Below, one piece after another: positions 1-64,000 of a DNA stretch of 64,000 bases (position 1 is its first letter; every line of letters begins with the position of its first letter). Location of the stretch: assembly GCA_030650425.1 (NCBI GenBank), contig JAUSED010000005.1, forward strand, positions 78,932 through 142,931, written 5' to 3'. This DNA comes from Candidatus Omnitrophota bacterium (GTDB taxonomy: Bacteria > Omnitrophota > Gorgyraeia > Gygaellales > Profunditerraquicolaceae). The notes beneath the pieces are model-generated. The model was given only the letters and a program-made list of their open reading frames with translations. It did not search any database and had not been told where the DNA came from. A program made the translations under genes and the position numbers.

Positions 1-2
1 AG

Positions 3-290
3 GTAAAGGATGATGGCAAAGGGATTAACAAGGAGAAGATTATTAAGCGCGCGGAAGAGTTGGGATTCATCAAAAAAGGCCAAAGGCTTAGCGAGCAGCA
101 AATCCTTAACTTAATATTTCTGCCTGAGGTAAGCGAAGCAAAAGACAGCCGGGAAGGAACGGGAATAGGCTTGGCTACTATTAAGAAGAGCATTGAGGCT
201 GTATGCGGCCAGATAAACGTAAAGAGTAAGACAGGGCAAGGAACCCAATTTAGCTTTAGCCTGCCTTGCGGAGTAGAGCCAGATAAGCTG
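3..290 (+). other. C-terminal part of a histidine-kinase-type ATPase (HATPase_c/GHKL) domain
   Basis: The translation ...DDGKGI...EGTGIGLATIKKSIEAVCGQINVKSKTGQGTQFSFSLP matches the G1/G2 boxes and the C-terminal sheet of sensor kinase ATPase domains. Confidence 0.55.
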
Positions 291-3200
291 AAGTCCGGCC
301 TGATAAAATCATTAAAACATAAGCCGTTTGTTATCGAGGTAATCGGAGAAAGAGGGTCTTTTTATAAAGAGGCGGCTCTTTTCTTGACGTGCCTTTTGGG
401 AGCGCGGCCTTTTAACACAGGCTGGCATGCGCGCGCGGCAGTATCTTTATTGTTGAAAGCTATTATGGAAGGCGCGAAGGTAGACAAGAATGATACAAAA
501 GCTGTAGCCGAACTTATGGAAAAATTATTAGAATTAATAGACCGCCTCAGGGAGCCGGTAGTAATCGGCGGCATTGTTACAACCGCTAAGAATGGGAATG
601 CGGTATTGGCTTATCGCGATGAAATTAAATTAGTTACTGACGCCTTAGGCCTCCAGCTTCATAGATTGGTTAATAGCCTGGAAGTGAGCGCGGTAATTGA
701 TGAATTCATAAACAGCGTGGTTAATGGTACTATTGTTTCAGGCCGATACTCAGGCATAATTTTATATACCTCAAAACCGTCTAAACGAAAGGACTCGCTA
801 AAACTCGCGCTCTTGGCTCCTGCGGAAATACGCGCGCAGAGGTTGGGCTGTTCTGTAGAAGATATCAACAAGATAGACAAAAATACAGGTATGGGTGAGG
901 ATTTAAATTATTCCGATGGCATCCTATATATATCAACCGATGATCTTAGCCCGCGTCAGGCCTATCGCAAGGCGCTCGCTATTGTAAGAAAAGAGTTAGT
1001 TAAAGAGTCTTCGCCGCAATCTTCCACCAAACCTCTTTCATCCAGCCCTGCCAGTTCCCCGGTAGAATACGAAAGTAAGCCAGTGGTTTCAGGCGATATT
1101 TCCAGATTGCGCGGTTATTGGTTTATGGAAGCGCCGCGGGAGTATCGAAGGAACGCCCTTCTTTTCGCGGAGAATCACGATGAGCGTCCCGCGCTTGATG
1201 CCTTTAAGAGTATGGAAAAGGCAGAGGCCGCCGCTGTTATTATTCTATCAACAGAGGCGCATATGCTTATCCCGCTTGCCCAAATATACGGGATAAAAAT
1301 GCCTGTTGGCGCGCGCACGGAAATGATGAAATCCCCGGACGCGGGCATTTATCGTTTTAACTATCCACAGCGCCAAGAGGCTGACTTAAAAATAATGTCT
1401 TTCTTTGAACAGGTGCTTCCTATTTTTAGCCAGTCGGTTTTTAGTAAGGGCGATTTATACAGCGCTAAATTAGCTTATCCGGAGGTACATTCTTTAAGAG
1501 GGCTATTTCCGGTGGTGCGCCATTTGCAAGGAGCAGGCGACACAATAGCGGTGATTAATTATTCAGATGGCCGAGAGAAAGTCAGGATAGATTTAGCCAA
1601 AATTTTTGGTTATTATCCCAATCAGGGATTGGCAATTTTAACGCGTCAGCCCAAACTGCGCTATACCAAGAATGTCACTCTTGAATTTAAAGAACCGCGG
1701 ATAGAATTCTCTTTCGGCCCTTACGGCTATGCGATTTTAGGGTTTAGCTCCAGCTCGCCGTTGGAAGAGGAATTCGTATCTCCTACTTCTATGGAGCTTA
1801 ATCCTCACAACTCTTTCTACGGGCAAAAAACGATGATTGATGGCGTGCAGATAGATAAAGTTGTAGCAGCGGGCTTGAATAATTATATACAGGAAAAAGC
1901 ATTAAATACCGCTGACAAAGATAGATTGACTTTTTCTATTGATGGTGAGGCCTTGACGTATGAAATGGTTAAGCTCAAAGAGAGGGTTTTAGCCATAGAC
2001 ACAAGATTAAGCAGTTTGAACATAAAAGAAGCCTTAGCTGATTTATTAATCACAGGCTTAGAGGACGTAGCAGACTTTAATATAGAACAGCTGCCTTTTT
2101 GCTTACATTTTACACTACTTGAGAAATCCCGTTATCTTTTTGAATCTTTACCCGCGCATAATTTCGCAGGTATTAATAGGGGGATACTCGCGTTCACTAA
2201 CCCTCACGCCAGAGATGTTCTTTTGAGGCTGGGATTATGGCATATCTTGCATATTAAGGCAACAACCAAAGGCAGATTGCATGACGGCATTATGAGGCTT
2301 AGGGATGTCGGTGTTGCTAAGAGGTTGATCAAGGAAAGCCGGCTGGGAAGTATCAAAAGATTTATGGCCGCGGTTGAACGAGATGGAGTATTATCGGAGA
2401 ATGCGTTCTTGTTGAATATTCTAAAGGCTTTTTCGACGGAAGAGAAGAGCCCGCAGGATAAAGTGGCTGGTATAAGAGAAAGTATGCGTTGTGATCTCTT
2501 AAATGAACGTCTAAACGCGTTACAAGAAGCAGCTGATAATAATTTAGCAGTTTATCTTGTAGATGATTTATTAGTTTTGCTCCGCGAGAAAGAAGAGCCG
2601 GCCAGGTATAATTTACGCACGCAAGAGGGTAAAGATTGGTATCACGTTAAAATGAATGCTATTTGGCTGTTAGGTAAATTAGAAATATTTCAGGTTGGAA
2701 TAGAAAAAGCTAGGGAGGTCTTGGCCCTTATGCTTGCATTTGGCCTAAGGAGCCCCGCGCCCTGCGTTCATGTCTCAGCTATACTTTCTATTGAATCACT
2801 GGAAAAGAAGGCAAAGGCTTGGCTTAAGCAGGAAGAGGAGAAAGATACATTACTTCCGGGGGCATTACCCGAAGGTGGAGCGGTATCGAGCCCTGTTGAG
2901 GAGGAAGAGATTTTCTTAAGGGAAATTCTGGAAGAGTCTTGTCAAATGGGCTATACGCAGCGGGAGCGCGAGATTTTACAGAGCGCGGCAGAATTTATTT
3001 CTTCAGAATATCAAGGTAAAAGTTTTAAATCTGGGGAGACGTATTTCCATCATGCCTTGGCCGCGGCCAAGACGCTTTTAGGCTGGAGAGCCGATATAAA
3101 AATCGCCGTGGCGGCGTTTCTGCATAAATTAGACCCTGAATCAAGGAAAAGGCAGGAAGGCCGGCTGAAAATTAAGCATTTAGAAAGAGAAGAGGTTGAT

Positions 3201-6200
3201 CAAATTATCGGTATGGTTGAGCGTTTAGAAAACATTGAACAGCGCTGGCCGTATTTGGGCGGGACCATCGTTTACTTGAAAGGCAATAGAAGCGTGCGCC
3301 GTTACCAGAATGCCGTTATGCAATTATGCCGGGATTATGAAACGCTTCTTTTGGTTTACGCGGATAAATTACAAAGCCTGCCCAAGGCCGCGACCTTTAA
3401 GGAAAAAGAGTACCGTTTCCAGGAAATAGTGGATATTTATATGATGCTGCCAGCCCGCTATAACGATTATAGCATGTTTGAAAAACTTAGAAACAAGGCC
3501 TTTGCGATATATGTGCCAGAGGCGGTTTTAGCTATTGAAGGGGATGCCCAAAATAAAGGAATACGCCAAAAGACTTGGGGGCTTTCTTTCCAAGAAATGG
3601 AGCAAAAGCTGAGAGAACTTTCCGGAGAGATCGCTATTTTATTAGAGGCAGGCAACATTCAGGCGGAAATTAAATCGCGCGTAAAGAGCGCATACGGCAT
3701 GTTTGAAAAAATATCCAGCGGAAGAAGGGTAGAATATAATAATTTTGAGGCATTAAAAGATATTTTGGGAACACATATTATATCCGCAAGCGTGGATGTT
3801 ATTTATAATCCCATCATGGTTTGGCTGCGCAAGAAAGGATATAGTTTTAGCGTTGATCAAAAATCAAAATTCAAAAAAGGGTACGAAGCCATTCATATTG
3901 ATGTGGAAATAAACGGTATTGAGCAGGCGAAGGCCCCTCTGCCCTATGAAATCGTTATCTTTAGCCCGGATGATTATAAAAAATATATTTCCGGTAATAG
4001 AAAAGAAAAGTATCTGCCTTTAACTATCCCGCATTACGCTTGGAAATTCGCTGGCTTAGGCGAAAGAGGAGACGAGCAAATTATTGACGCGGATCAATTG
4101 GAATTAAATAGCTTGCCCGCTGAGAATTATCAACAATTGCTTCATTCGTTAAAAAAACTCATTTTTGTTAATTATTTAGAAAAAACACAACGCGGGCTTG
4201 AGGCGCGCTTTATAGAGCTTCCTTACCAAGCCTATCCGGCGGATCTGGCGGCGCATGAGGAGGTGAATAGGTTAGATTCTCAATACAATGGCTTTGTAAC
4301 AATCGCGCTTGAGAAGAGAGGAGAAGAAACCGTTAAAGAAATTTCTCGTCCCCAACCTTTGCAAGAAATCGCTCTTTTAGCAACAGGTATGATTGTCATG
4401 TTGAATCCTCCAGGGGAGGGTTTAGGCAAAGACGTGCTTGGGGTTCTTGAGACTAAAGTGAGCCAACCTCGCACAGTAATGCTTCTGAAGAGGTTGAGAA
4501 ATATGAAAAGTGCAGATTATTGGATTAGGGCGGGAAAGGCGTTAGTGAGCCATAATATAAAAGGCAGAGTTGATAAAGCATATTATGAAAACTTACGTCA
4601 GTTCGCGAGGAGCAAAGGATTTCTGGATATTGCTGAGCTTTTTGAGGCCTTTGGCCGCGGGATCGTTGAAGTTCCATTAGGCAAAAAAGGCGGCTCTTCA
4701 AGCCCCCTGGATTCATCCATTGACCTTGAATTCTTTAAGCATAAATTGCTTCATAGCGAAGGAAGCGTTTCCTTTAAGGGCCTAAATATTTACAGCGAAG
4801 AAGAAATCCGTTATTTTTGGAAGAAGCAAAAGAAATATGGCGGAGTTTTCCAGCAGTTGTCTTTCGCCGCCGATCAGCTAAGCAAGAAAGATAAGATTAA
4901 GGTTCTTTGCGCTGAGGGGGTTTCGCATTTTAAAGACGGCCCTAAATTTTTTACAGCCAGCCGCCTGGCTATTCTTCTGCGCGAGAAAGGCGTTCCTGCG
5001 GAGGCTTTTGACATTTATGTTGTGGATACGGATATGAGCGCGTTGGAACAAGCTGCTTACGGATTTTATGATGCCAGATGGTTCATTGCGCCTAAAGGTG
5101 AAGCGCAAGAGCAGGGTATATTTAAAAAATATTTTGTTGAGTCTAAAAAACCACAGGGGTATCAACTTAAAGAATCTCTACGCTCCCGCATTCATCCGGT
5201 ATATACGCCTTCCCTGATTGAGCTTGAGGAAATTAAAGAAATAGGCCAATTTGATTTGATTACATATTTTTTTAAGGAGTATGTTTTGGAAACAAATCCA
5301 AATGCTCACGGCCAGATCGTAACCAATATTGTAGCCGGACATTTGATCGCGTGCTTAAAGGAAGGCGGTTTTCTCTTAACAACAGCGAATAAATGGTTTG
5401 AAGAATCAAACCTGATGAAACGCCTATCCGTGACTGCGGTTTCCCGTATCCATCGTTCTAATGTGGGCACTTTTAGAACTAAGGTTCTCGCCTATAAGAA
5501 ATTATTCGCAAGCTATAATGATGAATTTTCTAATAAAAAACTCATTCAGCAGTCTAACCAGCTTCGCCATTTAGAAAAAGTTATGGGCCAAAATATCAGC
5601 GTTAAAAGATTCAGGGACGCGTATGAGCTTGCGCGTCAAATCCATCGGGGCAAGAAAAGAGATAACGGAGAACCGTATTTAATGCATCCTATAGCCGTCG
5701 TTGATATTTTTATTGATGTTTTAAAAAGATACCCTCAATATTGGAAGCAATTAGGCTTGGATAGGATTTCTCTGGATGATTCTTATGCCGCTTTGATTGA
5801 CCATGATGTGTTTGAGGAGTATGACTATGATCATGGCCCGTTGAAGAGAAAACAATTAGAGAGCCTGATTAAAATCGAATTAGGGGATGCGGCTTTTGAT
5901 TTTATCATCATATTGACAAATGATAAGGCAAGCGAAGAAGAATATCTTTTGCGCATTATTAGTGATACCCGTTTAATCCTTTCTCTTATGAAGATGGCTG
6001 ATAAACTGCATAGTTTAAAGACTCCCCGTTATTCCCGCGCTGCTGAGAGGCAGAAAGAGAGCCTTTTACAGGCTATTGATTTTATCCAGAAATCTCGGCT
6101 GCCCAAAGAGGTTCCGGGGATTGTCAAATATTTTATTGATGAAATTTGCCGTTTATATTTACCTGAAATTGTAAAAAGCCGCGAAGAGGGGACGCTTAAA

Positions 6201-57200: not shown

Positions 57201-60200
57201 CAGCGTATTGAGTATAGAGATGGGGCCGCCTTGCCGCCGGGATCGCATATCGTCGTCTACGAGGAGAATGGGAATGTAGACGTTGTATATAGCCCATTGT
57301 TTAACAAAGGGTTACAAAACAAATCTTTAGGATATCAAGATGGCCCCGCCGCCGGCACTGAGCCTAATCGAAGCGCCTCGCCGGTTTCAGGAGAGACAGA
57401 ATTATCTTCGGCTTCCGCATGCCTTAGCCCCGCTAAATCCCGCGATAGCCCTAAGGGGAATAAATTCTTAACCTTAACTTCTGCTTTTCTTATTTTTCTT
57501 ACCTCCTTCCATCTTTACCTTAGTCCTTTGCGGGCCTATGCTAACCTTAAGGTTAATCTAAGCGTAATCACGCCCCAAGCGTCACAAGAGCGCCAAGAAA
57601 CCGAAGAGCTTTATAATCAGGCAAGCAGGCATCTAAAGAATCAAAAATACCAAGAAGCGCTGGATCTGTATATAAAGTTAATTAAGCTAGCGCCCAATTA
57701 TATAGATGCCTACATTGACAGGGCCTATCTTTATATCCACCTTGCTCAAGAAGCAAAACAAACAGGTAAAGATACAAAAGGCCTTAGGAAGAACAGAGAC
57801 AATGCAATGTTGGATTTAAAGAAGGCTGAGGCGCTTACTTTAAAGGCCATAAAAGAGAAATACTTTACTAAAGAAGAAGGCAATTTGGTATTTGCCTCAA
57901 TCTATAATCACTACGGATTATTTTATTATCACCTTGAAGGTGATTACAAGAAAGCAGTTAGTTATTTTGAGCAGGCCATAGGCTTAGAGCCGGATAACCC
58001 GATAAATCATAATGATTTAGGGGGAGCCTATTTTAAGTTAGGTAAATACGGCCTTGCCGAAGAGGCATATACTAAGGCAATTGATAAAGCAAAAGCCGCC
58101 AAAGACAATTACGCGGGTTCCCGCATTTACGCAAACCGCGCATTCTTAAGGTTTAAACTCGATAGATATAAGGCGGCAAAGCAAGACATACAGGAAGCCA
58201 CTAGTTTAAATCCCAATTTAAAGAATGATAATAATATCCAAAATTTATTAAAGGAGATTGAATTGAAACTTCAAGAGCGAGAAGGGGTTATTGATTTGTC
58301 TTATCTAAAACTCAATAACTCCAATATCCTTCAGCAGGCTTCCTCGCCGGTTTCGGAGAATAGAAGGGGACAGTTCTATCGTAACTGTTCATCGGCTATG
58401 GAGATAGACAGAGACGGTCTGGAGGATTCTAAGGAAGCGCTTATCGCGCCTTTGCAACATCCCTTAGGCAGGCATTTATATATAGGTACTGATGAGGAGC
58501 GAGACTTATCTAAATGCAGGCAATTGTTATTTGCAGCTTGTCTTGAACTTAGGATATGGAAGAAGCGATATTATTTTGAGCAAGTTGAAAACAGGATATG
58601 CAAGGATCCTTCGTTTCGGACAAAAATAGGCCTTATTGTCTTATTGCGCGATATCCTGCTTAATTATGACGCTTCTAACGTAACGGTTGCTTTTGTAGAC
58701 AGGCTTGAGGGTATTCCGGAAGAACTGATATCGTTCCTTTTAGATGACGAGATCTTATCAGCTTATTTGAATTATCAAGATGAACTTCGAAAATATAAAT
58801 ACATGGATGATAGGGCTATCGAAACTGGCTTTTTCCCATTTTATTATCTATGGTCAGCGTATAAACGCGGGGAAATGCGTGATGCCAAAGAACTCAAAGA
58901 GAGAGTTGTTAGCATCCTTAAGGGTTTTGGCTATGATAAAGCATTCTTCAAGCTCCTAAATGACTTAGCGCATAAGAAAAAGGCGGATTTTAGCCTTGAT
59001 AGCGGCGCAGACGAATTGCGGGTTTTCTTTAGGGCCTTATCCCGTAAAGATATCGTTGAGATTTTTAGACAGACCTTATCAACTCAGATTCTGCCTTCTG
59101 TTAAAAGGCATAGAGCTTCATCTGTAATACAAGGTACCGCCTCGCCGCTGAAGGAAATTGGATCAGAAACCCAAAGAGAAGCAGCCAGGGGAATGATGGT
59201 CATTGAATTGCCCGTGGATGCCGACTTGGGCGAGATCATAAATCACAAAATTGTATATGTTAAGAATGACGGGAATATTAGCACGATTAATGAAGGAAAT
59301 ACAATTAAACTACTACATCCTGATGGGCTAGAATGGAATCTTAGCTGCAAGGTAAGGGATTATCTAAGAGCTACATTTAGCTTAGATTACTCTCTCCTAG
59401 GATTAAAACCTCATCCCTCAACACTTGGAGCGATATGGGCAATGGAAAGGTATCCTACCAATAATCAGCAAGTCCTTGACGCGGGTTGCGGTGAAGGGGT
59501 TTTCACGATTTTGGCGGCTAATTTAGGAGCGAGTAAGGTTATAGGCGTTGATTTAAAAGATTTCATTATTGGACTCGCAAGAAGAAATGCTGAATTAAAT
59601 CGCTTAACTCATATTATTGAATATCACAAACAGGATTTCACAAAACCGTTACAACTATCTGTAAATAACATCAAGTTTGACAAGATCATAACTAATATAC
59701 CCTGTGGTTATACTTATATGGTTCCATCTTTATTGAGGCTTTATCCGGAAGTCAAAACCTTTATTTGGGCAGGTGATTACGTTCATCAAGAAGGCCGCGA
59801 GTATATCGTGGAGGGATCAGAAGAATATATTAGGGAGATTCAGGCATTAGGATTTCGATTCGTAGAAAAATTGATTATTCCTCAAAGAGGTTTGTTTTAT
59901 CCAGAAATTATTATTTGGAAGTGGGTGACATATATCTTAAAGCGGGAAATTAACGAAGCAGGCGCCGCCTCGCCGCTGGGGAAAAATGATCAAAATATCC
60001 TTATCCCTGAAATTATTTCTGAAGCTATTGCAGAAGAAGTTCAAAGAATGCCGGCTTGGGAACTTTTATCTGTTTTAGATCTCAAAAAGGCCAAGCTACT
60101 TTTTACTAAAAGCGGTCCTAGAGAGCTTACTGTCCACAAGATTAAAGTGCCAAAGCTTGTAAATAAGTATAAAGCGCCAGAGGGTTTAAGTATTCTGCCG

Positions 60201-63200
60201 TATGAACTTTTTGATACGACAGAATTTGAACTTTTATACAATAAAAAAGGATACCTTATCGCGATTTATCCGGTTCTCCCAAACGGATTCCTGATTAAAT
60301 CTGGCGAACGACTCCCTCACTATTTTGATTTTAGTGAATATTATTTTAAAATTCCGGAATTCGGTGATCCGAAAATGATTGAAAAATGGGATGCCTTCGT
60401 AAAGGATGTCGGCAGAGATCGGGAAGCAATACAGGCTTATGAGGATTTAATCGGGATAAAGGGTAAGCTTGAAAGGCGCCCGCGTTGGGTACCTTACATC
60501 TACGCAAATCTTGATTATCGGGATAATTTTCCATTTGCTCGGGCTTTTTACATTGAGATGTTTAGCCGTTTGATTAAAAAAGATGAAATCTCGAATAAAA
60601 TCTCTAGAGACATAATCCGGTCTATTCTTCCTGTTTTTCCGACTGTTTACCATCCGGGATCCCATTTATTGGATGATTGGAAATACATTTTAGCTGTTAC
60701 CAGGCGTCTTGATATCCAAAAAGACCATGATATTTTGGTTGTTGGCCCGGGGAATGGCCTTGACACTTGGTTTGTTTCTCGGCAAACAAGGCGGAAAATT
60801 TATGTTGCGGGAATTAATCCTTTGGAAGTTGCCAATACCAGGGCTGTCGCAAAAATTGCCGGGTTTAAGATAGAAGCCAGGATTTACGACAACATTATTT
60901 CTAAAGACGGCGTGACTGTCTTTAATAAGAGATTTGATCGGATTATCTGGAATATGCCCACATATTATCCGGTTGCCCCTAGAATCCGGGAAAGCCTTGA
61001 AGAATGGGAAGATAATGATTACGACGGTATGATCTTAAGGCGTTTTGCCGGAGGCCTTCCATTACTTCTTAAACCAAATGGAATTGCTTTGGTTTGGAAT
61101 TCCGCTGCCGGAAAACTTTTAGATGAGGTTGAAGAAATCTTAAAAGCAAGAGGAGCGCTAGATGTGGCAGTCGAAAAATACCCGGGTATGACGTATTTAG
61201 CCAATATCGAAATGGGCACGGAAACCATTCCTACCGCGCTTTACTTTATCCGCAAGGGAAAAAATCCGGATGCAGCAAGCGCCTATTGTGTCAGTTCGCC
61301 GCTGAAAGAAATAGTTGGAGCGACGGTGGTGACGCGAGGCGCCGCCTCGCCGGTTTCGGGGGGAATATTCCTAACTATATTATGGCCTAAAGACGGTAAT
61401 ATCTTTAATGCGCTCAAAATCTCTGTCATTAGTAGCGATATTCCTAATCTTGCGGATTCTCATAAGAGCAAGATTGAGGGCATCGTTTGTCAACAAGCCG
61501 GATTGCTTAATGATCAATTGGGCAGTATCAAAGACACTTTCATTCAGCGGCCATATCTTGATGTTCAGTTTAGGGATACTATTTATGGCTATATGACACT
61601 TACTGAGTTCTTTGGTTATTTGCGGATGGGATTTAAGGTAGGAGACAGCTTTATGGGAGGATATATTGTAGATTTCTATGGTTTCGGCAATCATAAGACG
61701 ATGCAGAAGCTCAGCGACTACAATAACAGAAGTATAAGCAATTATTTCTTTTTGCTCGCAGCGCTGAAGAAAATTGGTGGCGTTATCATTGATGCCCAGA
61801 AAGTGGTATATAAATATATTGGAGTCAACGAAGATTTTTTTACCGGATTTGACTTTGGCGAGCATCTAATTATTCAAAGGGCTAAAGTTAGGGGATTCAG
61901 CAAGTATCTTAGCAATGCCGCGTTTAATATGTATGATAGCGCGAGTAACTTCAGTGGTGGTTTTAGGCAACTCAAACCTTATTTCTATCCTCTGATGTTC
62001 GGCAAGGGGAACCTTGGAGAGCGGGCGAATGACCCCTCGTTCATAAATTCCCAGTATAGTCTTAGTCATATTTTTTCTCCTTCTAAAAAAGTATACCACG
62101 CTCTTAACGGGGTTGTCAAGAATATTAGTCTTGCCGCCTCGCCGATAAGGATCTCTCCATTTCTCAGTGACATATTTAGAATGTTTCATATGTTTGAGGT
62201 AAATGAATCTATTTTAAGCGAAGACGGGAAAGAGGCGCAGCAGTGGGTTAAGAAAATCATTGGCACAATGCAGAGGCCCCCTGTCGGCCTTATTACAAAT
62301 AATAATGCAGAAAAGCTCATAGCGCTTATGCCTAATCCACGGAAAATATCTCTCGGTGGTTGGTTTGATCTTAGCAGCCTCAATTTTGGAAGCGATGATG
62401 AATTTGGCTTTGGTTGTTTAAGGCCTTGCCCGCATTGTTCAGAAGGGAATACAAGAGCGCGGGTAACAAATCGCACGCTGCCGCCTGCAATAAAGCTTAT
62501 TGAAGAGATGCGCAAGGAAGGCCAGCAAGATACGTTAAGAGGCCTGAAAACTTATCCCGGAAGGTTTCTGATCCAAGGGTGGAATAACACCGACCTTTTC
62601 TATTGGTGTGATCCTTTCTTTAGAGTCTATTTAGACGGCCTTATTGAATTTATCGCGCGTCATTACAAAGATAGAAAATTCCGCCTGCGGATAGCCACAA
62701 TCGGCCCAAACATAGATGACTGGCGCGCATTTATCGTAGCAAAGAGTATTGACAATCTGGTGCTTCAATATCCTGAGTTAAGAAATAATATATTTAGTCT
62801 ATCCTTGCATTTGGCCTTATTTAGCACCAGAGGGTTTGATTATAATACTATCTCTGCTTTGTATGAGCGCAAGATAAATCCACAGCGGCTGGCTAAGGTT
62901 ATAGATAACTATGTGGCCCGCTACGCAGCTATTATTGGCGTTCTCAAGAATACGCTAAGAACGGTCAAAGTATTTCTGTCAAATGAAAGCAGTGAATTTG
63001 ACTCTCTTACGCTTACTGTATTAGATAGGGTCTTAGAGAGGGTCAATATCAGTGGTGGCTTAAAACAGAAGATTATTGATGGAGTAGCTGCAAGAGAACT
63101 AAACAGTGATGTAATGACCCCGTACGGCTTTACTGTAAAAAGCGCTAACATTACGCCATCCGGCCACCGGGGGTTTGATTTTGTAATTGGGTTATTCAAG

Positions 63201-63998
63201 CTTGCAGGCAGATGGAAAGAAGCTGAACGTTACAAGAGGGCTCAAGCAGTAATGAACTTCGCTCCATACCGCAGTAATTATGTCCCAGAAGATGGGTACC
63301 CTCAAACCATAATTTTACCGGGAGAAAGAATTATTGTTCAAAACGAGAAAAGAGAAATGTTTAAATTACCTCTGCAACAACTCGATCCTGATGCTGAATT
63401 TCTTGCCCGCTACGGACTACCTGACAAAAAATCTATAACTAAATATTTATCTTCAAGCCCATTGGCCGAAGTCGCCGCCTCGCCGGTGATAAACAGGCAA
63501 TCCATAACTTATGAAGAATTTGCCGATGATAAACTAGTCAGATTATTACAAAGCGCATCAGAAGAAGAAGTATGGGAGGGCATAATTCAATCCTTAGAAA
63601 AGCCAAGTCTCACTAAGAAAGAGGTGTCGGTAATTTTTGAGAATATTGTAAAGATATGTTATATGGAATATGGATATTACAGGTTCTCCGGTTTTTACTC
63701 TAAGGAGAAATTCCGCGAATTTTTTAAGAGGCTATTAGCATTTAAAGAGGAAATAACCGAAAGGATATTTGTAAATGAAGAAATTAAAATTCTATTCAGG
63801 AAAAGAATTGAAATTCTGAACAAAGTTTTAGATCTATCTGCGGCCGTTCCTTATGAGGTAATTCACTACCAAAGAGAGGATAGGATCATTCCTAAAGACA
63901 CCGATGGTTATTCTTTACCTTTAGCATTTTTAAGAATAATAGCTTTGACTATTTACGATACGTTGAAGGTTAATTTGACAAATAAGGTGGTTGCTATG
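3..63998 (+). CDS. Giant uninterrupted ORF, partial at both ends (21,332 codons in window), encoding a multi-module signalling/regulatory mega-protein
   Basis: The frame with codon starts divisible by 3 has no stop codon in the window. The ORF track lists ATG-to-stop ORFs in the other five frames but none in this one, as expected if it is never closed. Recognisable protein motifs occur in this frame from the first to the last kb, and the terminal 2 nt are left over as expected. The true gene is therefore longer than 64 kb. Confidence 0.85.
3030..3500 (+). other. Degenerate HD-like domain (RelA-type, HD dyad replaced by HK)
   Basis: ETYFHHALAAAKTL...AAFLHKL aligns to EPYIxHPLxVA...ALLHDV of RSH hydrolase domains but lacks the Asp of the HD dyad. 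It lies immediately upstream of the synthetase domain. Confidence 0.3.
3675..4060 (+). other. RelA/SpoT-type (p)ppGpp synthetase (nucleotidyltransferase) domain
   Basis: SRVKSAYGMFEKI...FEALKDILGTHIIS...KGYEAIHIDVEI...PYEIVIFS matches RPKHIYSIYRKM...FDVRAVRIV...GYQSIHTVV...VEVQIRT of RelA/SpoT synthetase domains. Confidence 0.55.
5607..6030 (+). other. HD domain of the SpoT/Mesh1 (p)ppGpp-hydrolase type with an intact HD dyad
   Basis: YELARQIHRGKKRDNGEPYLMHPIAVV...ALIDHDVFEE...LMKMADKLHSLKT matches AHxGQxRxSGEPYIxHPLxVA...LLHDVVED...KLADRLHNMRT. Confidence 0.65.
7311..7410 (+). mobile_element. MITE/REP-like nested palindromic element inserted in frame (copy 1)
   Basis: A perfect 11-bp inverted repeat gtcattgcgag (7329-7339) / ctcgcaatgac (7390-7400) encloses a perfect 27-nt palindrome, cgaagcaatctcg a cgagattgcttcg (7352-7378). 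The encoded peptide is R/C-rich (PIVSLRANEVSEAISTRLLRRCAPRND), unlike the flanking protein. A related copy lies 0.8 kb downstream. Confidence 0.55.
8114..8222 (+). mobile_element. MITE/REP-like nested palindromic element inserted in frame (copy 2, about 70% similar to copy 1)
   Basis: Outer perfect 11-bp terminal inverted repeat gttgcgaaatg (8114-8124) / catttcgcaac (8212-8222). Inner repeats cgtcatcctgag (8133-8144) / ctcagaatgacg (8190-8201) and cgaaggatctcg (8150-8161) / cgagattcttcg (8169-8180). Same architecture as copy 1: GTCAT..GAGCGAAGCGAAG.AATCTCG...CGAGATT.TTCG...CTCAGAATGAC. The encoded peptide is FRHPERSEGSRYRRDSSAFGLRMTQ. Confidence 0.55.
10970..11340 (+). other. Domain of unknown function, copy A of an internally duplicated module
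   Basis: PKLSLGLPMVIKSFHNLDEIRYLQEMAGNFELQFCVVSPKRTPYPLLIFSKEL...RFVPFA is clearly homologous to 31540-31870 (LELGLLMATKPFLNLREVRNIQELAGDFELQFTVIFPKGARHPLVVFSREL...RFVPFA). Both copies are followed by HTH domains. Confidence 0.5.
11440..11620 (+). other. LuxR/GerE-type HTH DNA-binding domain
   Basis: TDRELEIWRLWAKGVDREAIGKALNEGERFIKRVISKIITKFNISKRGQIAHF matches the LuxR C-terminal pattern LTxRExEVLxLxAxGxSNKEIAxxL.ISxxTVKxHxxNIxxKLxVxNRxxA. Confidence 0.5.
11925..12060 (+). other. Second LuxR-type HTH
   Basis: LSEREKKILWLFIAGYNPKAIALTLSLPEGILLSDILFAMKQKL. Confidence 0.4.
16560..17440 (+). other. TPR repeat tract followed by a TM helix (17455-17520)
   Basis: Repeated motifs such as W..LG..YY..GD...A...Y..A and A.Y.LG.I.F.QGK.DEA; then LPMLFVGLVLFIIAGISAG. 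Confidence 0.5.
18703..18747 (+). repeat. 17-bp near-perfect inverted repeat (hairpin) within coding sequence
   Basis: ggacacaatccttaatt (18703-18719) is complementary to aattaagtattgtgtcc (18731-18747) with one mismatch. It is followed by the tandem cctggaattc ctggaattc. Confidence 0.5.
18785..19150 (+). other. CheD-like (chemoreceptor glutamine deamidase family) domain
   Basis: GGRFVGCTACLFWDNNAGIHGFLHLFP resembles the CheD signature LGSCVAVCLYD...GGMNHFMLP. Confidence 0.3.
20100..20400 (+). other. Possible GNAT acetyltransferase fold
   Basis: IQEESLYGKGYVNEILFWI resembles the acetyl-CoA-binding motif A (Q/RxxGxG/A). Similar weak GNAT-like segments occur at 18200-18500 and 38390-38770 (RHNGYGIKIFRTAIKAL). 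Confidence 0.25.
20545..21040 (+). other. GGDEF diguanylate cyclase domain (GGEEF active-site motif)
   Basis: DLLTGAYNRRYLDE...[26 protein letters not shown]...FRYGGEEFCVI...VTVSIGV...ADQALYKAKENGRNRV contains all the GGDEF hallmarks. Confidence 0.8.
22290..22830 (+). other. Protein-kinase-like fold (atypical)
   Basis: FADSKPENVIIHH resembles the catalytic loop HRDLKPENILL, and the downstream IDMDN sits in the DFG position as in atypical or aminoglycoside-type kinases. Confidence 0.3.
24780..25240 (+). other. TPR repeat tract
   Basis: LNDFGAICLDQGRYSLARILFEVGL...HFQLGYVSYLLGEFNLAFAYFQTAKRLG...LGDFDNALKEFQEMMQAG. Confidence 0.5.
27500..27620 (+). other. HExxH zinc-metallopeptidase-like motif (HEYVH at 27526-27540)
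   Basis: VVRIIIHEYVHYYSFYSP...AEVFAETIVEMIY. This is a minimal gluzincin/ImmA-like signature, weak on its own. Confidence 0.25.
29220..29960 (+). other. Sigma-70 family module (region 2 and region 4-like)
   Basis: GLIKKIIASYKVT...LEDAAIFGAKIAALKYHPERGVKFMTFAWNVIKHEI matches region 2 (LVxSIAKRY...[37 protein letters not shown]). The C-terminal segment ...DQFGFSIVAKQRGIKRQTVTKAYYLVLATLR resembles region 4. Confidence 0.55.
30229..30480 (+). other. Low-molecular-weight phosphotyrosine phosphatase/ArsC-like domain (CxGNxxRS P-loop)
   Basis: GGIKVVFLCNGNRWRSAAMYLW matches the LMW-PTP P-loop V(L/C)FVCxGNxCRS. Confidence 0.4.
31540..31870 (+). other. Domain of unknown function, copy B of the duplicated module (see 10970-11340)
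   Basis: See copy A. It is followed immediately by the XRE HTH array. Confidence 0.5.
31995..33105 (+). repeat. Tandem array of about seven XRE/Cro-C1-type HTH units (about 160 nt each), two of them near-duplicate
   Basis: Units such as LRQIREKMGLSQKELVNRLGFLNLSAITFYEIGTVKMPLDFLNRI. LLQELRESLGYTPAKLAKVIGYTEVDILHWENAEAWIPSGVLRDIRKRVMPERLRQIREKM (32150-32340) is paralogous to LLKALREFLGYRAEKLARELGKGYTEEGILRWEEGKEWIPRGVLKEIRERLIPLRLRQIRKEV (32640-32810). Confidence 0.6.
33645..34200 (+). repeat. Three tandem repeats (about 60 aa / 185 nt each) of an uncharacterised W...GFL.W..AVKA.G..P motif
   Basis: WPLELFLSQLKTASKILGTNSSTAFLRKYRKIRRAFLFLREKGFLSDWNSAVKATGGQPAFR / WTKEIFLKQLKNAIKESGTSASWVIKDKYRKIYRAYLLYGIEWGFLNWASAVKACGAKPHLR / IIKTRKIFLYRLRQVFADLGTTSSREIKKRYPQLFISFIFCQEEWGYLDWSSAVRKTGNQPIS. 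Confidence 0.6.
35330..35900 (+). other. TPR repeat tract
   Basis: AEQLLNDGQYAEAIKLFKQVV...AKAYFISGKEHYLRGNYRRAINYFRKVLDV. Confidence 0.45.
36040..36700 (+). other. Second sigma-70-like module (region 2-like plus region 4-like HTH) ending at a junction motif
   Basis: HLWLVKLAAIRYL resembles LRLVVSIAKRYL, and FQGLSMEFITRRTELNEKEINQYLKQGGQEIQSL is an r4-like HTH. It is paralogous to 33370-33560 (LALNHEDMDNIIRLTGLTQEEIDRHLIEGGEKIQKISGL). Both end in xSSPV / SASPV. Confidence 0.35.
38865..38876 (+). repeat. Junction motif GCCGCCTCGCCG, exact copy, in phase (AASP)
   Basis: Exact 12-mer. Context PAASPVLGK. Confidence 0.9.
40960..41530 (+). other. Cluster of about 5-6 predicted transmembrane helices
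   Basis: Long hydrophobic runs such as WLSIFPAALFWAGYYLF, VIILASIALIGLTTIVF, IVGTTAVMRAIMVGSRTFLFSGIYFFSMIIFSALCSVFIL and FLVFMGAFFISDIVAMF. Further TM clusters lie at about 15440-15540, 19350-19500, 19770-19850, 38960-39070, 49020-49130, 49490-49620, 54640-54790, 56370-56860 and 57460-57540. Confidence 0.5.
41823..41834 (+). repeat. Junction motif GCCGCCTCGCCG, exact copy, in phase
   Basis: Context PAASPLAEE. Confidence 0.9.
43565..44400 (+). other. Radical SAM core domain (CX3CX2C plus GGEP)
   Basis: IITSKCNLQCAPCIAQ gives CNLQCAPC = CX3CX2C, and FVGGEPSLYG is the SAM-binding GGE motif downstream. Confidence 0.5.
46283..46980 (+). other. Calcineurin-like (PPP-family) metallophosphoesterase fold, partly degenerate metal ligands
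   Basis: VLVIPDIHCQY...IQIGDVISRGPE...RLLGSHELL...VVHAGV follows the DxH(x)nGDxxDRG(x)nGNHE pattern, with D to S in GDxxD and N to S in GNHE. Confidence 0.45.
48150..48440 (+). other. Two helix-turn-helix motifs
   Basis: WESQRRLAEEIGISEMTISNYLRRI and LKEWGIKELAALFGKTPHSIRQALPAINKRL. Confidence 0.4.
49310..49660 (+). other. M48/HtpX-like membrane zinc metallopeptidase module (HEITH at 49444-49458) with flanking TM helices
   Basis: GNYITINPNQLGNPDFELAKLMGHEITHITLGH resembles the M48 core (...ITvttGLL..L..dELegVlaHElgHi). Hydrophobic helices lie both upstream (49020-49130) and downstream (49490-49620). Confidence 0.45.
49990..50300 (+). other. Class I SAM-dependent methyltransferase fold
   Basis: GKTVIDAGTGDGVLAIMMAK (motif I, VLDxGxGxG), ...VDILVTNIG. 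Confidence 0.45.
50484..50495 (+). repeat. Junction motif GCCGCCTCGCCG, exact copy, in phase
   Basis: Context AAASPVSQ. Confidence 0.9.
53085..53096 (+). repeat. Junction motif GCCGCCTCGCCG, exact copy, in phase
   Basis: Context PAASPLAD. Confidence 0.9.
53205..53650 (+). other. LOG-family (lysine-decarboxylase-like / nucleotide phosphoribohydrolase) domain
   Basis: VAVFCSAR...YTIITGAGPGLMEAVGEGA...KADAFVIIPGGLGTLDELLEALTL...PIILLD matches the LOG signatures GGGxGLMGA and PGGxGTxEEL. Confidence 0.65.
53800..54290 (+). other. Second LOG/DprA-like Rossmann domain, more diverged
   Basis: AVGILGSHSF...ILYRGCQGITEAVDKA...LIFFAGGIGTLDILSDALCL...PIVLVN. Confidence 0.35.
54857..54896 (+). repeat. 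40-nt perfect direct repeat, copy 1 (contains a junction motif; encodes VGATVVTRGAASP)
   Basis: agttggagcgacggtggtgacgcgaggcgccgcctcgccg is identical to 61313-61352 and in the same codon phase. The flanks match for about 8 more nt with 2 mismatches. Confidence 0.9.
56370..56860 (+). other. Cluster of about 6 predicted transmembrane helices
   Basis: LSIIISYALLVPVF, VWIMTFAFLLLAW, IIFYLTAFCPGIFLSLITTLSLATIF, VDIFFSAVAVAFFSYY and AYFILVMLL. Confidence 0.45.
57580..58240 (+). other. TPR repeat tract (about 6 repeats)
   Basis: ELYNQASRHLKNQKYQEALDLYIKLIKLAPNYIDAYIDRAYLY...GLFYYHLEGDYKKAVSYFEQAIGLEPDNPINHNDLGGAYFKLGKYGLAEEAYTKAI...ANRAFLRFKLDRYKAAKQDIQEATSLNPN. Confidence 0.6.
59440..59730 (+). 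other. Class I SAM-dependent methyltransferase fold
   Basis: QVLDAGCGEGVFTILAANLGASKVIGVD (motif I) ...FDKIITNIP (motif IV-like). Confidence 0.45.
59963..59974 (+). repeat. Junction motif GCCGCCTCGCCG, exact copy but out of phase with the ORF (read as APPRR)
   Basis: 59963 is not divisible by 3. The ORF frame reads ...KQAPPRRWGKMIKISF..., whereas the +1 frame would read EAGAASPLGKNDQNIL before hitting TGA at 60008. Confidence 0.8.
60700..61130 (+). other. Class I SAM-dependent methyltransferase fold
   Basis: HDILVVGPGNGLDTWFVSRQTRRKIYVAGINP...FDRIIWNMPTYYP...LKPNGIALVW. Confidence 0.45.
61313..61352 (+). repeat. 40-nt perfect direct repeat, copy 2 (immediately upstream of the antisense toxin cassette)
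   Basis: Identical to 54857-54896. Confidence 0.9.
61380..61865 (-). CDS. vapC: PIN-domain ribonuclease toxin (VapC-like), encoded antisense within the giant ORF and in codon registry with it
   Basis: The 161-aa translation has the PIN hallmarks IFVDSNIFIYHF (N-terminal Asp), TSVIVVAELLHRL (Glu), LLTNDALNLALM (Asp) and C-terminal IATNDRDFERI (Asp). Its start ATG (61863-61865) abuts the TAG stop of the upstream small ORF. It ends at the TAA complementary to the plus-strand TTA at 61380-61382. Confidence 0.75.
   Translation of the reverse strand: MLAKVKSGKKIFVDSNIFIYHFLGINDNATNFLQRCEQKEIIAYTSVIVVAELLHRLMIAETIEIYNISSHKAVSYLKSHPQITKELSKCHIAINSIPKLNIKIWPLNESVFDTAQLIIKQSGLLTNDALNLALMRIRKIRNIATNDRDFERIKDITVFRP
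61866..62069 (-). CDS. vapB: Antitoxin of the DUF104 type that commonly pairs with PIN toxins; start taken at the internal Met preceded by a Shine-Dalgarno
   Basis: MTKTILGIYERGVIRPLSKVPLAEHQRIEIRFELP... matches the MxxxIxAIYENGVLKPLEPLDLPEGTEVRV antitoxin signature. AAGGAG lies 7 nt upstream of this ATG on the minus strand. The track ORF (61866-62189) extends further 5' but without an SD. Confidence 0.7.
   Translation of the reverse strand: MTKTILGIYERGVIRPLSKVPLAEHQRIEIRFELPKTTTEVTRAIIHIKRGIAKILAESPNFSPLNN
62077..62119 (-). promoter_or_regulatory. Sigma-70-type promoter plus Shine-Dalgarno for the antisense TA operon
   Basis: The minus strand reads TTGACA (62119-62114) - 18 nt - TATACT (62095-62090) - tttttag - AAGGAG (62082-62077) - aaaaaat - ATG (62069-62067). 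Confidence 0.6.
62133..62144 (+). repeat. Junction motif GCCGCCTCGCCG, exact copy, in phase (immediately beyond the antisense cassette promoter)
   Basis: Context LAASPIRI. Confidence 0.9.
62400..63200 (+). other. Second CX3CX2C motif (possible radical-SAM-like module)
   Basis: GFGCLRPCPHCSEG gives CLRPCPHC = CX3CX2C at 62415-62438. The domain extent is uncertain. Confidence 0.3.
63474..63485 (+). repeat. Junction motif GCCGCCTCGCCG, exact copy, in phase
   Basis: Context VAASPVIN. Confidence 0.9.
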
Positions 63999-64000
63999 CA

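Follow-up and report, generated by a model that had tools for sequence, protein, structure and literature searches.

A conserved, frame-locked junction divides a giant Omnitrophota open reading frame into protein-sized modules

Introduction

The bacterial lineage Omnitrophota has turned out to be rich in giant open reading frames (ORFs), with lengths of 10,000-147,000 codons. In several Omnitrophota classes the majority of genomes contain ORFs of more than 20 kb, which show few annotated domains and poor conservation, and the giant ORF of V. archaeovorus encodes 39,678 aa with 42 transmembrane helices (Seymour et al. 2023, PMC10066038). West-Roberts et al. (2023, 10.1101/2023.11.21.568195) described Omnitrophota giant proteins of up to 85,804 aa with many transmembrane helices, included HATPase_c, Radical_SAM, TPR, Lysine_decarbox and GGDEF in their top-20 list of the commonest giant-protein domains, and called the cleavage points of such proteins unknown. 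In one corpus, 3,650 proteins reach or exceed 10,000 aa, the longest with 147,155 aa (Nielsen & Lui 2026, 10.64898/2026.06.07.730766). Its authors distinguish a 'multi-enzyme' class 1 and a signal-transduction co-occurrence termed 'Module 1' (methyltransferase, HATPase_c, GNAT, HAD, HD). They report that 80% of long proteins are singletons in sequence. For the long proteins of Omnitrophota they give a transmembrane density of ~2% of residues, and they place 46% of them in a topology class named 'TM-only, membrane-anchored cytoplasmic'. Here we analysed a 64,000-nt stretch of a Candidatus Omnitrophota genome (assembly GCA_030650425.1, contig JAUSED010000005.1, positions 78,932 to 142,931 of the forward strand), hereafter the window, which lies entirely within one such gene. 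We describe a short junction motif, always in the reading frame and conserved in nucleotides as well as in residues, that divides the encoded protein into about 55 units.

With 21,332 codons in view, the window exceeds both size thresholds applied to Omnitrophota giants (>20 kb; at least 10,000 aa). Pfam and NCBIfam scans were run on overlapping 1,000-aa and 5,000-aa pieces of the translated product, while PDB sequence searches covered its first 10,000 aa. As in the 'multi-enzyme' class, there are at least 17 distinct domain types, none of which dominates by copy number, only five internal paralogous pairs and no tandem arrays in a self-BLAST, and one trivial tandem repeat; the product is not a repeat protein. 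'Module 1' is represented by two methyltransferases, HATPase_c, GNAT and two HD regions, and no HAD domain matched in the window. Together with GGDEF, radical SAM, Lysine_decarbox/LOG, TPR and a peptidase, these are domains that the window shares with Omnitrophota giants, and in both most of the length is dark and nucleotide tandem repeats are few. By simple hydropathy we counted ~21 transmembrane-like helices of 19 aa, scattered at about one per 1,000 aa and amounting to 1.9% of residues, against the ~2% of the published class. The window thus agrees with the published class in its length and architecture, in its domains and transmembrane density, and in being a sequence orphan, and we infer that the gene belongs to the giant, membrane-anchored multi-enzyme ORF class of Omnitrophota. 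It would have arisen by end-to-end fusion of once-independent genes or domains. Its domain content fits the 'TM-only, membrane-anchored cytoplasmic' topology and not an adhesin, and the dockerin domain known from Omnitrophota giants is absent from this slice.

The only member of the class with expression data is the giant of Velamenicoccus (Vampirococcus) archaeovorus LiM, which shows that such ORFs are translated (PMC10066038, 10.1101/2023.11.21.568195). Like the window, it combines tens of transmembrane helices with mixed enzyme domains, although no sequence similarity between the two was detected; it has been read as a surface 'coat' and prey-degrading factor, whereas the domains of the window are typical cytoplasmic regulators. 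The first-pass annotation of this stretch had called a gene of this size extremely rare; such genes are rare in bacteria at large, but after the surveys cited above they are no longer exceptional. The S-P junction with its nucleotide cassette is a feature of this window, and no recurring motif, linker or junction is mentioned in Seymour 2023, West-Roberts 2023 or Nielsen & Lui 2026. The gene type is thus documented already, while the regular, frame-locked junction is apparently undescribed.

Results

The giant open reading frame

Re-translation of the window in six frames showed that frame +3, read from nt 3, contains no TAA, TAG or TGA in 21,332 codons, whereas the remaining five frames carry 802-2,021 stops each and have longest open runs of 81-242 codons. 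From the base composition ~1,453 stops would be expected in frame +3, and the probability of finding none is ~1e-653. In each 3-kb bin the GC content of the three codon positions follows the order GC1 > GC3 > GC2, with ~63% purine at position 1. All 2-kb bins have a GC skew above zero, with a mean of ~+0.15, so that the cumulative curve climbs monotonically. Since the codon-position statistics are uniform and the skew is positive throughout, the frame appears to be coding along its full length, and more than merely open. The skew pattern is also consistent with a single direction of transcription and probably with placement on the leading strand.

The start of the window cuts a CheA-like HATPase_c domain, of which only the C-terminal half is in view, and the end of the window lies 172 aa past the final junction motif. 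The gene therefore extends on both sides, and 21,332 codons is a lower bound for its length, as both ends fall outside the window. No tRNA or tmRNA genes and no Rfam families were found in the 64 kb, and Tandem Repeats Finder (TRF) returned no significant tandem repeats beside the trivial one. Internal transcription units were considered and rejected, as promoter-like and terminator-like matches occur only at the chance level seen in shuffled sequence. The longest ORF in an alternative frame (54671-55387, minus strand, 238 aa, GTG start) is antisense to the giant ORF; it is on record nowhere as a called gene and is probably spurious.

The dark sequence without a homologue in the searched collections, and the lack of database domains over most of the ORF, would also be expected if this were not a functional giant gene at all. 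The sequence could then be synthetic or the product of chimeric assembly, it could be a decaying pseudogene, or it could encode an adhesin or polyvalent protein belonging to a phage or plasmid. We regard this as very improbable. There are 0 stops where ~1,450 are expected, the codon statistics are uniform, and catalytic motifs are intact in at least eight domain types. Furthermore, the junction grammar described below is frame-locked across the whole 64 kb, so that a chimeric join would need to preserve both frame and grammar. PHROGs gave only generic GGDEF, helix-turn-helix (HTH), HD, LOG and sigma matches without any phage hallmark, and the locus has no counterpart in IMG/VR, which led us to reject a phage or polyvalent protein. 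Polyvalent proteins of phages and conjugative elements, as Iyer, Burroughs, Anand, de Souza and Aravind reportedly described in 2017 (J Bacteriol), fuse many unrelated enzymatic domains, and embedded metallopeptidases were proposed to release them; they are said to be usually smaller than 8,000 aa and to have ParB, SNF2, DNA methylases and ADP-ribosyltransferases as hallmarks. A repeat-type giant adhesin was likewise rejected, as no Ig-like, cadherin, TSP3, dockerin or RTX families were matched in Pfam and no arrays were seen by self-BLAST or TRF. The same holds for a nonribosomal peptide or polyketide megasynthase, since condensation/adenylation/PCP and KS/AT/ACP domains were not detected with Pfam or NCBIfam.

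A single giant gene is the only reading that agrees at once with a frame free of stops, coding statistics that stay uniform along it, catalytic motifs that are intact and a junction locked to the frame. These findings show that the whole window is an internal 64-kb piece of one real gene, which codes for protein and comprises at least 21,332 codons. The first-pass annotation, which had proposed a stop-free frame within one giant gene with neither end in view, was correct on both counts.

The junction motif

A k-mer scan of the translated frame returned SSP 50 times (3.7 expected), SSSP 18 times (0.24 expected) and AASP 13 times (0.29 expected). The listed sites give one motif, [G/R/P]-[S/A/V]-[S/A/G]-S-P-[V/L/I], often followed by S/E/G and then E. 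The pattern [SAG]SP[VLI] occurs 69 times, against 2.6 expected after a global shuffle and 4.35 after shuffling within 10-aa windows (maximum 11 in 500), while the swapped control patterns [SAG]PS[VLI], [SAG]TP[VLI] and [SAG]SP[DEKR] occur 0 times each in the frame. Within the window, the junction is statistically overwhelming. It always lies in the frame of the giant ORF, position +1 is aliphatic in 62 of the 74 junction sites, Thr never takes the place of Ser, and a charged residue never comes next.

None of the 74 sites falls within any of 21 domain envelopes, where 11 would be expected (P 6.6e-6); typically they lie 5-90 aa beyond a domain edge. Between clusters of sites the median length is 316 aa (interquartile range 248-503, range 60-1056), as is usual for single bacterial proteins. 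This shows that the giant ORF is a concatenation of ~55 dissimilar protein-sized modules divided by a conserved, frame-locked junction. As in a polyprotein, the short motif is found between, and never within, units of ordinary protein size. A clear instance is the G-S-P-V junction at aa 16574 (19.2 bits in a position weight matrix), which divides an M48 peptidase from the next module. Coordinates of the junctions and of the modules that they flank are given in Table 1.

Within 10 aa of the junctions, small and polar residues are enriched, and the sites lie in short hydrophilic, linker-like stretches rich in G/S/P/N/T/Q. These surroundings are what one would expect of a structural hinge that is never cleaved, or of a site of post-translational modification such as Ser phosphorylation or O-glycosylation at S-P, in which case the product would be an uncleaved, membrane-tethered scaffold of dozens of enzymes. 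The published view of the topology, namely membrane-anchored single polypeptides (10.64898/2026.06.07.730766), agrees with a scaffold, and Pfam scans recognised no dedicated processing protease in the window. However, ordinary linkers vary in sequence and length, while here S-P is invariant and position +1 is aliphatic in most sites. Taken with the absence of Thr and of a following charge, this invariance argues for recognition by a specific factor. In addition, 22 pairs of sites are only 4-29 aa apart, and such double junctions are hard to explain as hinges. Finally, synthesis of more than 21,000 codons for every molecule of scaffold would be very inefficient given ribosome drop-off. Overall, we consider a hinge or modification site unlikely.

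Double junctions are seen, for example, at 15408-15458, 38838-38879, 53034-53099 and 63450-63488, and often consist of an SSP-type site followed by an AASP-type site. If both sites were cut, short spacer peptides would be freed; alternatively, the pairs might be relics of lost modules or empty slots. Three junctions directly precede a transmembrane-like helix: 15444-15510 (GASP-IRVMAAGIALITYLHLVLF), 37716-37782 (VASP-VSTLAKAIGSIIFNLYLIF) and 56358-56424 (ASSP-LDLTVGLSIIISYALLVPVF). If modules are released, the helix after these junctions would form a new, signal-anchor-like N-terminus.

The junction cassette in the DNA

No oligonucleotide of the window is over-represented more strongly than that of the junction, with CGCCTCGCC present 17 times against 0.03 expected and CCTCGCCG present 20 times; all copies are in one codon register and none is on the reverse strand. 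A repeat finder independently gave the junction as the dominant direct-repeat family, with spacings that are all multiples of 3. The nucleotide consensus is GGC GCC GCC TCG CCG GTN. The Ser of S-P is encoded by TCG, the rarest Ser codon of the giant gene, in 44 of 74 junctions versus 9.4% elsewhere (P 1e-26), the Pro by CCG in 46 of 74 versus 27.7% (P 7e-10), and the preceding Ala by GCC in 37 of 45 versus 25.7% (P 3e-15). The bias is confined to the junction motif: 59 other S-P dipeptides use codons at background frequency, and the GC content of third codon positions is elevated only from codon -3 to codon +1 of the junctions. With an 18-nt weight matrix at a threshold of at least 14 bits, all 44 plus-strand matches were in the ORF frame, versus 1.35 in codon shuffles.

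Identity with the consensus (GGCGCCGCCTCGCCGGT) climbs from 5' to 3' along the window, from 8.9/17 in the first quartile to 11.9/17 in the last (Spearman 0.42, P 1e-4), and third-position matches rise in parallel from 2.0/5 to 3.4/5, with a background of 0.96. The successive quartiles hold 17, 16, 19 and 28 sites. The 13 AASP (GCC GCC TCG CCG) junctions are all confined to the part after aa 12,900, and SSSP-type junctions are found throughout (nt 38,800-63,500 versus 1-38,800). The gradient suggests that the 3'-ward junctions are younger or more strongly maintained. Where Ser occupies position -1 (27 sites), its codon is TCC, one mutation away from GCC, 11 times, while the background is 14%. 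At 40887, 50823 and 57231 (aa 13629, 16941 and 19077) the nucleotide motif is kept at 12-16 bits, with S or P lost (AASLV, AASAA and AALPP); these copies look like decaying junctions.

Two observations concern copying at the DNA level. An exact 39-nt repeat, GTTGGAGCGACGGTGGTGACGCGAGGCGCCGCCTCGCCG, which encodes VGATVVTRGAASP, is present at nt 54858-54896 and, 6.4 kb away, at nt 61314-61352. Both copies are part of a double junction (SSP-x13-AASP), while the protein around them is only ~41% identical, which suggests that DNA was recently copied or converted here. The second observation is a pair of paralogous dark modules, A and B (Table 1), which form the sole module-sized internal duplication of the window and have both edges coinciding with junctions. 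Structure prediction for the duplicated module was poor, with a confidence score (pLDDT) of 45.

In principle, the junction could act mainly in the DNA, as an in-frame site of direct-repeat recombination or microhomology at which modules could be gained, lost, duplicated or exchanged with the frame kept intact, the peptide motif being largely a by-product. Several of the features above point in this direction: the strong conservation of synonymous codons over only ~5 codons, the restriction to the plus strand with spacings in multiples of 3, the identical 39-nt segment at two junctions, the regional subtypes with their 5'-to-3' gradient, and the module-sized duplication with junctions at its ends. 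Tyrosine recombinases, integrases and transposases have moreover been reported beside giant genes (10.64898/2026.06.07.730766). Yet junctions with drifted codons (AGC, TCT, CCT) retain S-P-[V/L/I], and since the peptide is kept where the codons are at background, selection must act on the peptide itself. For homologous recombination, moreover, 12-18 nt would be a short core, and the window shows neither a recombinase nor inverted copies. A role confined largely to the DNA therefore appears improbable to us.

The codon preferences might alternatively reflect a signal to the ribosome, that is, a programmed pause or a 'StopGo'-like skip with Pro-tRNA in the A site, serving co-translational folding, membrane insertion or release. 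The Pro that would be in the A site indeed never varies, which is a property of SecM (RAG/P) and viral 2A (NPG/P) too, the preferred codons include the rare TCG, which tends to occur together with CCG (odds ratio 4.3, P 0.003), and the sites lie exactly at module boundaries. Against this, just 3-4 upstream residues are conserved where known arrest and skip peptides need 10-20, GCC and CCG are not rare codons, one third to one half of the sites use other codons, and 2A-type skipping is not known on bacterial ribosomes. An RNA hairpin at the junctions was unsupported as well (z -0.30 versus -0.07 in controls, P 0.05). A ribosome-level signal thus has little to recommend it. Internal translation starts after the junctions were also considered and rejected, as Met comes directly after the motif in just 3 of 74 sites.

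Module content

The domain scans of the translated product, which the first-pass annotation had proposed as a check, recovered diverse domains with intact catalytic motifs (Table 1). Recognised domains span aa 1 to aa 19,924 and occupy only ~15% of residues. The final ~1,400 aa are free of database domains, yet junction motifs continue there as far as aa 21,160. The CheA-like HATPase_c retains the G2 box GTGIGL. In the diguanylate cyclase module, three transmembrane-like helices (aa 6456-6610) precede a GGDEF domain that carries GGEEF and, five residues upstream, the RxxD I-site. In the radical SAM domain the CxxxCxxC motif is intact (CNLQCAPC at aa 14530). The M48 peptidase starts 10 aa past a junction and is followed by two transmembrane-like helices, and the two PrmA-like methyltransferases are 37% identical by self-BLAST. 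A match to the RelA_SpoT synthetase domain adjoining HD region 1 is weak (PF04607 E 2e-4, under the Pfam cutoff), and there is a weak CheR-like match at aa 1655-1734.

Copy 1 of the LOG pair has the motif PGGLGTLDE intact. Copy 2 (54033-54311, aa 18011-18103) has AGGIGTLDI in place of PGGxGTxxE, a degenerate nucleotide-binding motif, and is likely a non-catalytic partner. The sigma-70-like and pseudouridine-synthase-like regions are divergent, and such housekeeping-type functions are unusual inside a giant membrane protein. The tandem XRE-type HTHs show MqsA-, HipB-, RstR- and DicA-like affinities, and repressors of the antitoxin or anti-CRISPR-associated type are concatenated in one module.

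The description of the content as cytoplasmic-type enzymes, with no adhesin or Ig repeats, was correct, given the few paralogous pairs and no tandem arrays noted above, but the product is not purely cytoplasmic, given its ~21 transmembrane-like helices. The content, comprising a sigma-like factor, HTH repressors, a kinase, (p)ppGpp, cyclic di-GMP (c-di-GMP) and nucleotide-processing enzymes and a radical SAM domain, suggests that the modules act on the cytoplasmic side, some of them tethered by their own helices.

Table 1. Features of the giant ORF and its junctions in the 64-kb window
Feature	Position (nt)	Strand	Basis
Stop-free frame, 21,332 codons, internal part of the giant gene with both ends beyond the window	3..63998	+	Re-translation, codon-position composition
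CheA-like histidine-kinase HATPase_c, C-terminal part, aa 1-91	3..275	+	PF02518 E 4.6e-9; NCBIfam CheA; PDB CheA chains E 1.6e-12
HD_4 / RelA-SpoT-like (p)ppGpp hydrolase-type region 1, aa 1002-1317	3006..3953	+	PF13328 E 5.9e-13; TIGR00691 E 5.6e-24
RelA/SpoT-type HD region 2, aa 1863-2027	5589..6083	+	NCBIfam PRK11092; PDB 6s2t E 6.4e-8; phrog_990 E 7e-11
Paralogous dark module A, aa 3514-3807, junction at each end	10542..11423	+	Self-BLAST 33% identity, E 1.6e-41
GerE/LuxR-type HTH, aa 3812-3870, begins 5 aa past a junction	11436..11612	+	PF00196 E 1e-10
TPR block near aa 5635-5800	16905..17402	+	Domain scans; PDB consensus-TPR chains
Membrane-anchored diguanylate cyclase module, GGDEF at aa 6848-7008	19368..21026	+	PF00990 E 6.9e-42; TIGR00254 E 6e-47; PDB WspR/PleD E 1e-30
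Pseudouridine-synthase-like region, aa 7217-7350, under family cutoff	21651..22052	+	TIGR00093 E 1.2e-12, 47.9 bits
Sigma-70 family (SigB/F/G-like) region, aa 9742-9970, under family cutoffs	29226..29912	+	NCBIfam E 6e-8; phrog_351 E 3.7e-11
Paralogous dark module B, aa 10343-10657, junction at each end	31029..31973	+	Self-BLAST, alignment with module A
Four or five XRE-type HTHs and Aca2/YdiL-like region, aa 10665-10960, begins 8 aa past a junction	31995..32882	+	PF13560 E 1e-26; PF01381 E 6e-24; PF08965 E 5e-9; NCBIfam; PHROGs
TPR block near aa 11788-11943	35364-35831	+	Domain scans
GNAT acetyltransferase, aa 12819-12905, sole domain of a 176-aa inter-junction module	38457..38717	+	PF00583 E 5e-5
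Radical SAM, aa 14524-14672	43572..44018	+	PF04055 E 8e-11; NCBIfam radical-SAM families
Calcineurin-like metallophosphoesterase, aa 15426-15554, motifs DIH, GDVISRG, GSHE	46278..46664	+	PF00149 E 6.5e-5
M48 (HtpX-like) zinc peptidase, aa 16421-16551, motif HEITH	49263..49655	+	PF01435 E 6e-6
PrmA-like SAM methyltransferase 1, aa 16651-16774, motif I DAGTGDG	49953..50324	+	PF06325 E 1.4e-12
Tandem LOG/SLOG (TIGR00730), aa 17734-17899 and 18011-18103, one module	53202..54311	+	PF03641 E 1.4e-50; TIGR00730 E 1e-52
Double-junction mini-element copy 1, SSPVEKTVGATVVTRGAASPL	54835..54899	+	Direct-repeat family, 65 nt at 91% identity
TPR block near aa 19201-19401	57603-58205	+	Domain scans
PrmA-like SAM methyltransferase 2, aa 19803-19924, DAGCGEG, in a 276-aa module	59409..59774	+	PF06325 E 8e-17; TIGR00406
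Double-junction mini-element copy 2, SSPLKEIVGATVVTRGAASPV	61291..61355	+	Direct-repeat family, 65 nt at 91% identity
Span of all 80 sites [S/A/G]-S-P-[V/L/I/M/A/T], 69 with V/L/I, 55 clusters	1050..63488	+	Motif scan
V/L/I junctions, five-codon core starts (a)	1050, 1749, 2883, 4695, 6246, 7047, 7923, 9438, 9525, 10533, 11415, 13617, 15408, 15444, 18048, 18627, 19302	+	
V/L/I junctions, five-codon core starts (b)	21051, 23724, 24489, 24627, 27051, 28029, 28173, 30156, 31023, 31965, 33543, 36678, 37656, 37716, 38838, 38865	+	
V/L/I junctions, five-codon core starts (c)	40803, 41748, 41823, 41877, 42768, 42834, 43380, 46023, 46203, 48006, 48051, 48927, 49227, 49716	+	
V/L/I junctions, five-codon core starts (d)	50484, 50790, 51573, 53034, 53085, 54369, 54450, 54585, 54807, 54834, 54885, 55620, 56358, 57372, 58338, 59136, 59964, 61290, 61341, 62133, 63450, 63474	+	
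Junctions at aa 6436 and 7019, flanking the transmembrane-plus-GGDEF module (583 aa)			
Junctions at aa 12781 and 12957, flanking GNAT			
Junctions at aa 16411 and 16574, flanking the M48 peptidase			
Junctions at aa 16574 and 16830, flanking methyltransferase 1			
Junctions at aa 17697 and 18125, flanking the LOG pair			
Junctions at aa 19714 and 19990, flanking methyltransferase 2			

Relatives in sequence collections

An exhaustive HMMER search of aa 16,300-17,499 against 1.84 billion representatives returned only 388 proteins aligned to the ~200-aa methyltransferase core, with a top score of 84 bits, and a single protein of 3,196 aa (P0012) aligned over a dark stretch; no protein of more than 10,000 aa was among the best 150 matches. 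The best methyltransferase homologues are ordinary PrmA proteins of Balneolaceae and Chitinophaga, and the match of rank 142 is P0142 (NCBI MFH1479290.1), a 2,400-aa protein from a Candidatus Omnitrophota metagenome-assembled genome. This match is the sole pointer to taxonomy and a weak one, and the window contains no marker gene. An exact search with the first 40 nt of the window had no match in viral, GTDB-representative and JGI metagenome collections. A word-indexed protein search gave 0 matches for a dark 1,000-aa stretch and one weak match for the LOG region. Exact-peptide seeding of aa 14,401-19,400 against GTDB genomes revealed no relative, and the paralogous-module alignment found nothing in viral and metagenome contigs. 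With a profile of three concatenated junctions, 520 candidates in the word-indexed database passed the filter and none scored, a search of low power, and a scan of viral contigs with the 15-nt cassette gave only single chance matches in GC-rich contigs.

Both P0142 and P0012 contain a short recurring motif of their own. In P0142, PGS[E/G/K] is present five times (0.38 expected for PGS), and successive sites flank each of its two methyltransferase domains. In P0012 (NCBI, 3,196 aa), R[AS]ELR is present five times with spacings of 322-844 aa, and the region homologous to the window starts just past one site.

Discussion

The account that we favour, at a probability of roughly 0.6 as a whole, is that the gene encodes a polyprotein-like string of fused protein-sized modules whose junction cassette was copied as DNA, is kept by selection on the protein, and most likely serves as a processing or boundary site. 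The cassette G-A-A-S-P-V (GGC GCC GCC TCG CCG GTN) would be introduced whenever modules join or duplicate, and would subsequently decay. Insertion, duplication or exchange of modules would spread it, with the junction serving as in-frame microhomology. The cassette would then drift at synonymous sites and from Ala to Ser, while S-P-[aliphatic] would be held by protein selection. In the protein, the junction would mark module boundaries for proteolytic or co-translational processing, so that modules would be released or autonomous even if few ribosomes reach the end of a frame of tens of thousands of codons.

A boundary or processing signal seems most likely because the motif is sharp, like a recognition site rather than a linker, and because the units look like complete stand-alone proteins, as exemplified by the 176-aa GNAT, the 276-aa PrmA-like methyltransferase and the 583-aa membrane diguanylate cyclase. 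Known ribosome drop-off rates would make full synthesis of tens of thousands of codons rare, and releasing the modules would therefore rescue the investment, which supports processing. Whether the chain is actually cut at the junctions is a separate matter, and we put this at somewhat below even odds. The site models of signal peptidase I, prepilin peptidase, sortase-type enzymes and double-glycine (C39) peptidases were considered for the junctions, and none fits all of them. Gly is found at -2 or -3 in only ~16 junction sites, which leaves a C39-like GA/GS reading as a weak possibility.

Two systems with separated modules offer a comparison. In viral polyproteins (picorna-, poty-, flavi- and nidoviruses), one ORF carries a short conserved motif between mature products of ordinary size, and each lineage has its own site consensus; such lineage-specific sites would fit the differing candidate motifs of P0142 and P0012. 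The window differs in being cellular, bacterial and 10-100 times longer, in that no cognate protease was recognised in it, and in that its junction is conserved in nucleotides too. MARTX and other autoprocessing multi-effector toxins, in which unrelated enzyme modules are separated at short inter-module sites, provide a working analogy (PMC6315884, PMC2900308). MARTX toxins measure 3,500-5,300 aa, with RTX-type repeat regions and a C80 cysteine protease that is activated by inositol hexakisphosphate (InsP6) and cuts after Leu, whereas neither RTX repeats nor a C80 protease was detected in the window by Pfam scans. In a fuller version of the account, giant bacterial ORFs of this type might be true polyproteins, with a lineage-specific junction that is both the site where ~300-aa modules are parted during or after translation and a DNA handle for adding and exchanging modules, the youngest junctions being 3'; this fuller version we advance tentatively, and think it rather doubtful.

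A number of observations weigh against the favoured account. The junction punctuation is seen in one gene only, that of this window, and no relatives or orthologues of the giant gene were found in the collections searched. The motifs of P0142 and P0012 may be lineage-specific punctuation, but they are hints only, with five sites each. We know of no protease specificity that matches [S/A]-S-P-[V/L/I], and the only peptidase in the window is M48. The nucleotide bias of the junctions could instead stem from direct selection on mRNA or DNA, and the transmembrane helices were called by simple hydropathy, which is crude compared with a trained predictor. Finally, the 'Archaeovorin' type (10.1101/2023.11.21.568195) is expected to have glycosyl-transferases, glycosyl-hydrolases, NUDIX, methyltransferases and peptidases. 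Of these the window has methyltransferases and M48 only, and the Pfam and NCBIfam scans gave none of SecA_DEAD, C39/S8, glycosyl-transferase, glycosyl-hydrolase and NUDIX in the visible 21,332 aa, a slice that is incomplete at both ends, so that such domains could lie outside it. Giant Omnitrophota genes are further described as having divergent SecA_DEAD or SecA preprotein-binding domains, an N-terminal C39 or S8 peptidase and, in the flanks, pilZ, T2SS/T4P and glycoside-hydrolase genes; the N-terminus and the flanks fall outside the window. If the motif proves peculiar to this gene, what is left of the finding is an additional sequence orphan in an established class.

The junction bears directly on whether and where giant proteins are divided. 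It predicts exact residues for neo-termini in proteomics, and it offers natural cut boundaries for piecewise structure prediction of giants. The cassette gradient and the junction subtypes may record how such genes grow. Our findings also raise the possibility that such 'genes' are operon-like sets of ordinary cytoplasmic regulators fused without stops, which differs from the adhesin or prey-degrading picture. If the polyprotein interpretation is true, a large share of the regulatory proteome of a small cell, including a sigma factor, a kinase, (p)ppGpp and c-di-GMP enzymes and repressors, would come from one stop-free 'gene', and the missing 'cleavage points' of the Omnitrophota giants could be readable directly from sequence.

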